64,000 bases of DNA, taken from Escherichia coli (GTDB lineage Bacteria; Pseudomonadota; Gammaproteobacteria; Enterobacterales; Enterobacteriaceae). The notes beneath the pieces are model-generated. The model had not been told where the DNA came from. It ran no database searches and saw only the letters and a list, made by a program, of their open reading frames with translations. Position numbers and translations under genes: made by a program. Position 1 is the first letter of the stretch. Every line of letters begins with the position of its first letter. This document shows, piece after piece, positions 11,494-11,790 of this stretch. The stretch lies in NCBI RefSeq assembly GCF_965641715.1, contig NZ_OZ282453.1, one strand, 5' to 3'.

Positions 11494-11570
11494 TGGTTGC
11501 GGGGGCCGGATTTGAACCGACGACCTTCGGGTTATGAGCCCGACGAGCTACCAGGCTGCTCCACCCCGCG
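11494..11570 (-). tRNA. metV: Initiator tRNA-fMet (anticodon CAU), promoter-distal copy
   Basis: Reverse complement is CGCGGGGTGGAGCAGCCTGGTAGCTCGTCGGGCTCATAACCCGAAGGTCGTCGGTTCAAATCCGGCCCCCGCAACCA (77 nt, CCA encoded); symbol assigned by position in the metZWV operon. Confidence 0.9.
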
Positions 11571-11603
11571 TCACCGTACTGCTTTTACTTCATCAAATTT
11601 GAT

Positions 11604-11680
11604 TGGTTGCGGGGGCCGGATTTGAACCGACGACCTTCGGGTTATGAGCCCGACGAGCTACCAGGCTGCTCCACCCCGCG
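11604..11680 (-). tRNA. metW: Initiator tRNA-fMet (anticodon CAU), middle copy
   Basis: Identical 77-nt sequence to the 11494-11570 copy. Confidence 0.9.
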
Positions 11681-11713
11681 TCACCGTACTGCTTTACTTC
11701 ATCAAATTTTAAT

Positions 11714-11790
11714 TGGTTGCGGGGGCCGGATTTGAACCGACGACCTTCGGGTTATGAGCCCGACGAGCTACCAAGCTGCTCCACCCCGCG
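11714..11790 (-). tRNA. metZ: Initiator tRNA-fMet (anticodon CAU), promoter-proximal copy with one D-loop substitution
   Basis: Same 77-nt sequence except GCAGCTTGG in place of GCAGCCTGG (tRNA sense). Confidence 0.85.

Follow-up and report, generated by a model that had tools for sequence, protein, structure and literature searches.

The metZWV operon of Escherichia coli K-12 (metZ b2814, metW b2815 and metV b2816) carries three of the four initiator tRNA genes of the cell, and the level of initiator tRNA has been reported to follow gene number, with loss of metZWV leading to a growth defect, cold sensitivity and relaxed initiation fidelity (PMC3017606). Growth defects in the absence of metZWV were also reported in a separate deletion study (PMC11480407). 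Two forms of the initiator have been distinguished, tRNAfMet1 (G46) and tRNAfMet2 (A46), the latter being encoded by metY in K-12, and metY of E. coli B has G46 (PMC3017606). A further single-base variant, with A at position 17, has been reported for metW of strain Nissle 1917 (preprint 10.64898/2026.04.16.719103). Here we describe the metZWV locus in a 64-kb stretch of E. coli DNA (contig NZ_OZ282453.1; the whole stretch is called the window below), in which the array occupies positions 11494-11790, the genes lie on the minus strand and are transcribed from right to left, and the promoter-proximal gene, metZ, carries T instead of C at tRNA position 17.

The three tRNA genes identified by ARAGORN in the window are all tRNA-Met(CAT) genes on the minus strand, with the anticodon cat at position 35 in each, and the Rfam tRNA model scored every copy at 61.4 bits (gathering score 29). 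They are arranged head to tail with a period of 110 nt, made up of a 77-nt gene and a 33-nt spacer. On one side the array is neighboured by ptrA, recB, recD, argA and amiC, and on the other side by mltA, tcdA, csdE and csdA. The order argA-amiC-(metV metW metZ)-mltA-tcdA corresponds to the position of the three genes in K-12 MG1655, with the array on the strand opposite to amiC and mltA, and a placement between amiC and mltA is also found in the annotated homologous regions of K-12, O157:H7, 14EC033 and others. Based on synteny and near-identity to K-12, the copies are assigned to metZ (11714-11790), metW (the middle copy, 11604-11680) and metV (the distal copy, 11494-11570), all on the minus strand. 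In its amiC-mltA position, orientation and copy number the locus agrees with K-12, as it does in both 33-nt spacers, in the promoter region upstream and in the terminator, and metW and metV are each 77/77 identical to their K-12 counterparts. Over 501 nt across the array, the only differences from K-12 are the T for C at position 17 of metZ and three single-nucleotide polymorphisms (SNPs), which lie outside the genes in the 500 nt around them. The locus is the standard E. coli metZWV operon, with three tandem tRNAfMet1 genes, one promoter and one intrinsic terminator; the three tandem initiator tRNA genes recognised in an earlier note on this DNA are borne out by ARAGORN, by Rfam and by the initiator hallmarks described below.

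When the three copies are aligned, the single difference is found at tRNA position 17, with T in metZ and C in the other two, in agreement with the earlier note, which had reported one variant promoter-proximal copy and two identical ones. On the plus strand the variant reads A at 11774, where the equivalent base of the other copies is G, and the D-loop of metZ reads GCAGCTTGG in the tRNA sense, with U17 in the transcript. The note had spoken of a minor initiator isoacceptor; the variant stands, and the proper term is isodecoder, since the anticodon is the same and the body of the tRNA is different. In kind, the allele resembles the A46 form of K-12 metY, both being strain polymorphisms in which one base of a single initiator gene out of four creates a natural isodecoder, but it affects D-loop position 17 of metZ and not variable-loop position 46 of metY, and the window copies all have G46. 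The other close precedent is the Nissle 1917 variant, which concerns the same nucleotide position in the same operon of a natural strain, although it is a C-to-A change in metW and not a C-to-T change in metZ.

The T is present in the same copy in two other assemblies of the lineage, of which one (L009, GCA_018013555.1) shows zero differences from the window over 13,181 nt and the other (L008, GCA_053638755.1) a single different base over the same length. The PtrA protein of the window is encoded on at least 24 draft-assembly contigs. Among complete E. coli genomes, a query of 80 nt, covering the variant together with the unique sequence just upstream of metZ, matched exactly in 23 of 5,424, and with one mismatch in 5,400. 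C17 is present in all three metZWV copies of K-12 and O157:H7, and more than 99% of the complete genomes, K-12, O157:H7 and BL21 included, have C17 in metZ. This rules out T as the normal base of this copy, and the comparison with reference genomes that had been proposed as a check on the variant therefore leaves it standing, as a strain polymorphism shared with the two related assemblies and with the 23 complete genomes. An exact match to the 501 nt of the window was not found among complete genomes; the carriers that come nearest are 14EC033 and CUWW06, with 99.8% identity in both cases, and in alignment the sole difference of 14EC033 is one extra base in the metW-metV spacer. From these comparisons the window lineage appears to be known only from draft assemblies and to be poorly represented among complete genomes. 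It is close to certain that C17-to-T in metZ is genuine and inherited in this lineage, and that it is a rare, recurrent natural polymorphism.

The recurrence extends beyond metZ. The exact 77-nt variant tRNA was identified in 124 of 5,425 complete E. coli genomes (2.3%) and, when read by locus, it was located in metV in strain 7/2, in metW in strain C5 and, at the separate argG-rimP locus, in metY in strains 90-3040 and LH50-c. Flank-specific 80-nt queries for the C17-to-T allele gave exact full-length matches in 23 genomes for metZ, 23 for metW, 35 for metV and 7 for metY; the rest of the 124 carriers have SNPs or indels in the flanks, and so fall outside these exact queries. For six metZ carriers the flanks were compared. 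Strain 203740, a metZ carrier, differs from the non-carrier K-12 at 5 of 4,900 and 4 of 4,600 flank positions, and from other metZ carriers at 80-98 of 4,900. By flank, the window is nearest to 100181 and O157:H7, neither of which carries the allele. Apart from the variant, no difference separates 203740 from K-12 within 1.7 kb, or the window from O157:H7 within about 2 kb. A variety of hosts and sources is represented among the 23 metZ carriers. The occurrence of the allele on unrelated haplotypes, often as the sole change within about 2 kb, therefore argues for repeated origin and, as far as sequences can tell, the pattern in the flanks is that of repeated point mutation, not of one allele travelling with its neighbourhood.

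The position of the change within the gene suggests why it recurs. The D-loop DNA of the consensus gene reads GCAG-CCTGG-TAGC, in which CCTGG, at linear positions 16-20, is the sole CCWGG of the initiator tRNA gene, with its inner (second) C at position 17. This site is intact in metW (11661-11665) and in metV (11551-11555), whereas metZ has CTTGG at 11771-11775 (ccaag on the plus strand; all three on the minus strand), by which the CCWGG match is lost. Of the two cytosines in CCWGG, Dcm methylates the second, and its methylation in E. coli has been described as having high specificity and efficiency (PMC3527292). At the methylated base, CCWGG sites are established G:C-to-A:T hotspots in E. 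coli (PMC13250602), and the T:G mismatch in CTWGG/CCWGG is a substrate of Vsr very-short-patch repair (PMC2715241; PMC3527292). The variant described in the earlier note is refined in two ways, in that it recurs in all four initiator genes and that the base concerned is a cytosine of the type methylated by Dcm, which the note had not noticed. With the known Dcm deamination hotspots it shares the C-to-T change at the second C of CCWGG; the difference is that these belong to a laboratory mutation spectrum, whereas here a recurrent natural polymorphism in a tRNA gene is concerned, known from sequence alone. The amber hotspots of lacI in the work of Coulondre et al. (1978) are reportedly an example of 5-methylcytosine deamination at Dcm sites.

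In the mechanism that we propose, Dcm would methylate the inner C17 of CCTGG in the initiator genes, the 5-methylcytosine at this position would deaminate spontaneously to thymine, and the resulting T would escape very-short-patch (Vsr) repair. A deamination hotspot at C17 would therefore produce the same change repeatedly and independently in each of the four initiator genes. The frequencies of related changes are in line with this proposal. Against the 124 complete genomes with C17-to-T, at the inner C of the putatively methylated site, only 6 carry C16-to-T, a change of the same mutation class at the adjacent loop position, which is the outer, unmethylated C, and two of these, enterotoxigenic E. 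coli (ETEC) H10407 and SEC470, have equal record length and coordinates and look like one strain; the excess of 124 versus 6 is one of genomes, not of events. The G18-to-A change, the product of deamination on the opposite strand, was found in 1 genome (14EC017). The C17-to-T change is also found in other tRNA genes with the same D-loop motif, GCGCAGCCTGGTAGCGC, in 11 genomes for proK and in 2 for proL. 5-Methylcytosine deamination at the Dcm site is, on these grounds, the most likely origin of C17-to-T. We infer, in the strain at hand, whose dcm and vsr genes lie outside the window, methylation of the site, deamination as the cause and functional neutrality of the product, each of them as probable.

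Two observations may be added on these related changes. In K-12, the D-loop of proL (L141, 312-388) and of proK (L142, 317-393) reads GCGCAGCCTGGTAGCGC, with the Dcm site at the same position as in the initiator genes. The 14EC017 gene with G18-to-A is located at 990777-990853 of NZ_CP024134.1, and the universally conserved G18 would be lost in its product; this may represent an error, or else a deleterious change that arose recently in a redundant gene copy.

As an alternative to a hotspot, the allele could have arisen once or very few times long ago, having spread among the copies by gene conversion or unequal crossover and among strains by homologous recombination. Near-identical copies do recombine, as is seen in arrays of two and five copies whose spacer orders are those expected from unequal crossover, and the array and its close flanks are near-invariant in E. 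coli, so that a short imported patch would leave no linked SNPs; moreover, proL, with the same Dcm motif and one copy, has 2 carriers only. We nevertheless consider such a history unlikely. In the carriers examined, a single variant copy lies next to copies of consensus sequence, so that there is no internal donor, and the variant stands isolated on haplotypes that otherwise match those of non-carriers over 1.7-2 kb, on backgrounds that are 1.5-2% apart. The allele is also carried by the distant metY (63.5 versus 71.5 min; PMC3017606), and Vsr repair in a heteroduplex would turn T back to C, thereby opposing spread (PMC2715241). Finally, C16-to-T had equal opportunities to spread in this way, yet it was found in 6 genomes only.

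Repeated deamination at the Dcm site has to be weighed against several points that do not favour it. Genome counts are inflated by clonal relatives, so 124 carriers do not represent 124 mutation events, and C16 may be more tightly constrained than C17, in which case the contrast of 124 versus 6 would partly reflect selection and not mutation rate. With 11 and 2 carriers, proK and proL are far below the approximately 31 per initiator gene. A Dcm site alone is therefore insufficient for a high allele frequency, and redundancy (four initiator genes versus one), constraint or transcription must matter too; as a replication of the hotspot, the proK/proL comparison provides weak support. The A17 of Nissle is not a deamination product, which indicates that position 17 tolerates changes of other origins. 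In the 9.5 kb of flanks, compared among 7-9 strains, no significant excess of transitions was found at the inner cytosines of CCWGG (2 of 40 versus 176 of 4,819, p = 0.66), a test that was underpowered. An earlier site definition in this test (odds ratio 2.8, p = 0.04) was discarded, as it was biased towards polymorphic sites.

Another CCTGG in the window, at about 14868 in the csdE/csdA region, has T at the inner-C position in the window alone among nine strains (column TCCCCCCCC), and represents a second candidate for a Dcm-site C-to-T change private to the window lineage.

Position 17 is unpaired, and replacing C17 by U17 alters neither the predicted cloverleaf nor its minimum free energy (-30.3 kcal/mol). 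A scan with the U17 core as query, covering one genome per bacterial species, gave more than 120 stretches as a lower bound, with Vibrio, Haemophilus, Rodentibacter, Photorhabdus, Providencia, Shewanella, Pseudomonas and Enterobacter sp. Ag1 among the matches listed. Also among the matches listed, 39 of 131 initiator genes from other species (Vibrio, Shewanella, Photorhabdus, Providencia and Enterobacter sp. Ag1) were 77/77 identical to the metZ of the window. In the stretches recovered from these Gammaproteobacteria the native initiator genes have U17, in some of them alongside C17 copies, whereas in E. coli it is a rare single-copy allele. Given this identity to native initiators of other genera, the U17 variant is probably neutral in E. 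coli and, by the same analogy, almost certainly functional as an initiator. About one of the four initiator tRNA genes of the cell would encode the U17 isodecoder, and its persistence at low frequency may reflect the unpaired and variable nature of this D-loop position, the buffering of any effect by the other three gene copies, and the fact that the same tRNA sequence is native in other Gammaproteobacteria.

Both U17 and C17 initiator genes were observed in single stretches of Vibrio hannami, of Photorhabdus species and of Enterobacter sp. Ag1 (L013, L021, L042, L044, L090, L103 and L117). Judging from the genes compared, mixed isodecoder sets are not peculiar to E. coli.

Such tolerance could in principle explain the polymorphism by itself, with position 17 as the least constrained nucleotide, mutating at an ordinary rate, and its overlap with the Dcm site a coincidence. 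The A at position 17 in Nissle 1917 (preprint 10.64898/2026.04.16.719103) fits this explanation, as do the many genera in which U17 is native, the single genomes holding C17 and U17 copies (Vibrio hannami L013, Photorhabdus and Enterobacter sp. Ag1) and the local flank test without a Dcm excess. Tolerance alone is nevertheless quite improbable: the neighbouring C16-to-T, which belongs to the same mutation class, is about 20 times rarer, the same C-to-T occurs in the same motif in proK and proL, and the CCWGG hotspot is experimentally well established. In Nissle, the variant gene (metW, GCAGCATGG) is located at 8754-8830 of stretch L144, corresponding to 3158753-3158829 of NZ_CP007799.1. The possibility that its A17 was the same allele given on the wrong strand was ruled out by reading the Nissle array directly, as the change is truly C-to-A in metW.

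Still less probable, to the point of being remote, is that U17 is an adaptive isodecoder kept by selection, for example through a dihydrouridine that alters the flexibility of the D-loop or how the tRNA performs in the cold. In E. coli, DusB is the enzyme specific for D17 (PMC5814906), a selective advantage of A17 in Nissle has been speculated upon (preprint 10.64898/2026.04.16.719103), and U17 is fixed in other genera. The allele is, however, confined to 2.3% of genomes and to a single copy in the carriers examined, with the copy concerned differing by strain, and the 23 metZ carriers are of varied hosts and sources, with the six that were compared sitting on divergent haplotypes. In addition, U17 is followed here by U17a, versus G18 in the DusB substrates (PMC5814906), and modification of U17 to dihydrouridine by DusB is uncertain for this reason. 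As for a sequencing or assembly artefact in this record, the other possibility raised in the earlier note, identical tandem repeats are liable to assembly and consensus errors, but the independent assemblies L008 and L009 with the same base in the same copy and the identical allele in 124 complete genomes rule it out for practical purposes.

Taken as a whole, the explanation by which a metZWV operon carries a genuine recurrent allele, generated by deamination at a Dcm site and persisting neutrally, is in our view probable. A broader proposal is made more tentatively, at somewhat less than an even chance: the D-loop CCTGG of the initiator genes, proK and proL may be a natural, repeatedly firing deamination hotspot on the non-transcribed strand of very heavily transcribed genes, where U17 isodecoders would be continually generated and then removed by Vsr repair and drift. 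If this were true, the four-copy initiator family would offer a natural read-out of how Dcm methylation, transcription-associated deamination and very-short-patch repair balance one another in wild populations. The operon is textbook, the allele is already present in public genomes and the proposed mechanism is textbook as well; in the literature, no paper was found that describes the U17 allele or notes that it falls on a Dcm site. Little changes for biology with an ordinary feature of this kind. The statement that all E. coli initiator genes are identical is nonetheless not quite true, with about 2% of complete genomes carrying a U17 copy and Nissle 1917 an A17 copy, which is relevant for initiator tRNA engineering and for strain comparison. 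One specific Dcm-site change that recurs in four paralogues and on many backgrounds would provide a clear natural illustration of methylation-driven mutation bias, and its recurrence warns against taking shared SNPs in tRNA genes as common descent.

With regard to the other features of the operon, all three copies have the CAU anticodon and a cloverleaf in the predicted fold, and C1 lies opposite A72, a pair flagged as non-canonical by Rfam, with position 1 unpaired in the predicted fold. The D stem pairs G10-A11-G12-C13 with G22-C23-U24-C25 and hence contains A11:U24, a pair typical of initiator tRNAs. The CCA end is encoded in every copy. In the anticodon stem (TCGGG-CTCATAA-CCCGA), three G-C pairs are formed by positions 29-31 with 39-41, which is a described initiator feature (PMC3017606). 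All three copies have G46, reading ...GAAGGTCG..., and are of the tRNAfMet1 and not the tRNAfMet2 type.

Upstream of metZ, on the minus strand, the putative promoter extends over 11804-11841 and comprises an A8 tract (11834-11841), a -35-like TTGCAT (11826-11831), a 16-nt spacer, a -10 hexamer TATAGT (11804-11809) and a GC-rich discriminator, GCGC. The region reads ...TTGCAT-N16-TATAGT-GCGCATCCACGGA, as in K-12, and includes a sequence equal to the promoter-proximal primer tgaaaacgcgagcggagtatagtgcgcatccacgga of PMC3017606. A consensus promoter scan called no promoter upstream of metZ, because the -35 matches at only 3 of 6 bases. The promoter is therefore assigned from its identity to the K-12 sequence investigated in PMC3017606, a study that located promoter-down mutations within the -10 box and adjacent to it, and the choice of the two hexamers is our own reading. 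At the other end of the array, a terminator scan identified an intrinsic terminator hairpin, GAACACCC-TAAC-GGGTGTTT, followed by a T-run (11468-11487, minus strand), 6 nt past the 3' end of metV.

The two spacers, both 33 nt long and the same as in K-12 by alignment, are alike but non-identical (ATTAAAATTTGATGAAGTAAAGCAGTACGGTGA versus ATCAAATTTGATGAAGTAAAAGCAGTACGGTGA): the metZ-metW spacer, called type A, is located at 11681-11713, and the metW-metV spacer, called type B, at 11571-11603, both on the minus strand. The metZ-metW spacer showed no variation in any strain whose spacers were read. The metW-metV spacer varies among strains in the length of an A-run, ATCAAATTT versus ATCAAAATTT (window, L001, L135, L140, L144), and by point changes, GAAGTAAAAG versus GAAATAAAG and GCAGTAC versus GCAATAC. 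The spacer types also allow changes in copy number to be followed. An initiator-gene query matched 1-8 places in each genome (median 4). In TUM11353 the array has two copies and the first spacer type only, and AR_0137 has five copies with the spacer order A-B-A-B, the order expected if misaligned arrays had undergone unequal crossover at their first and third copies. These natural arrays bear out the suggestion in the earlier note that the repeat unit is a substrate for copy-number change by unequal recombination. With arrays of 2 to 5 copies, initiator gene dosage varies in the wild, and this dosage has been linked to growth, cold sensitivity and initiation fidelity (PMC3017606, PMC11480407).

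The surroundings of the array differ among strains. Downstream of metV, an inserted island and not amiC is found in 90-9280, KSC207, TUM11353 and Nissle 1917, comprising type VI secretion genes (tssB, tssC, tssK, tssL and others) and/or a phosphotransferase system (PTS)-MalY-KpsF sugar gene cluster. It corresponds to L132 1-4112, L133 1-4666, L139 1759-1880 and L144 9576-41374, with 10077-11493 as the counterpart in the window. In Nissle about 32 kb separate metV from amiC; the window is without the island, and the end of amiC lies 73 nt from metV. On the other side of the array, the mltA-tcdA spacer (window 13097-13334) is 239 nt long in the window, K-12, O157, 14EC033 and 203740, and 77 nt long in A11, KSC207, 90-9280 and Nissle, which amounts to a 162-nt presence/absence polymorphism. 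A match to the Rfam small RNA (sRNA) model ES036 (CssrF) was found at 13218-13260 within this spacer (46.5 bits), and the spacer element may be a repetitive extragenic element.

From ptrA to eno, the open reading frames (ORFs) of the window follow the same order as in K-12, and no insertion sequences were seen in the ORF list. The best match of window positions 1-25000 among 5,426 complete E. coli genomes was 99.2% over 25 kb, in strains 100181 and ZF8-1. A full-length CsrB sRNA (34662-35021, plus strand, 384 bits) and a GcvB sRNA (16276-16481, minus strand, 197 bits) are located at their usual K-12 positions.

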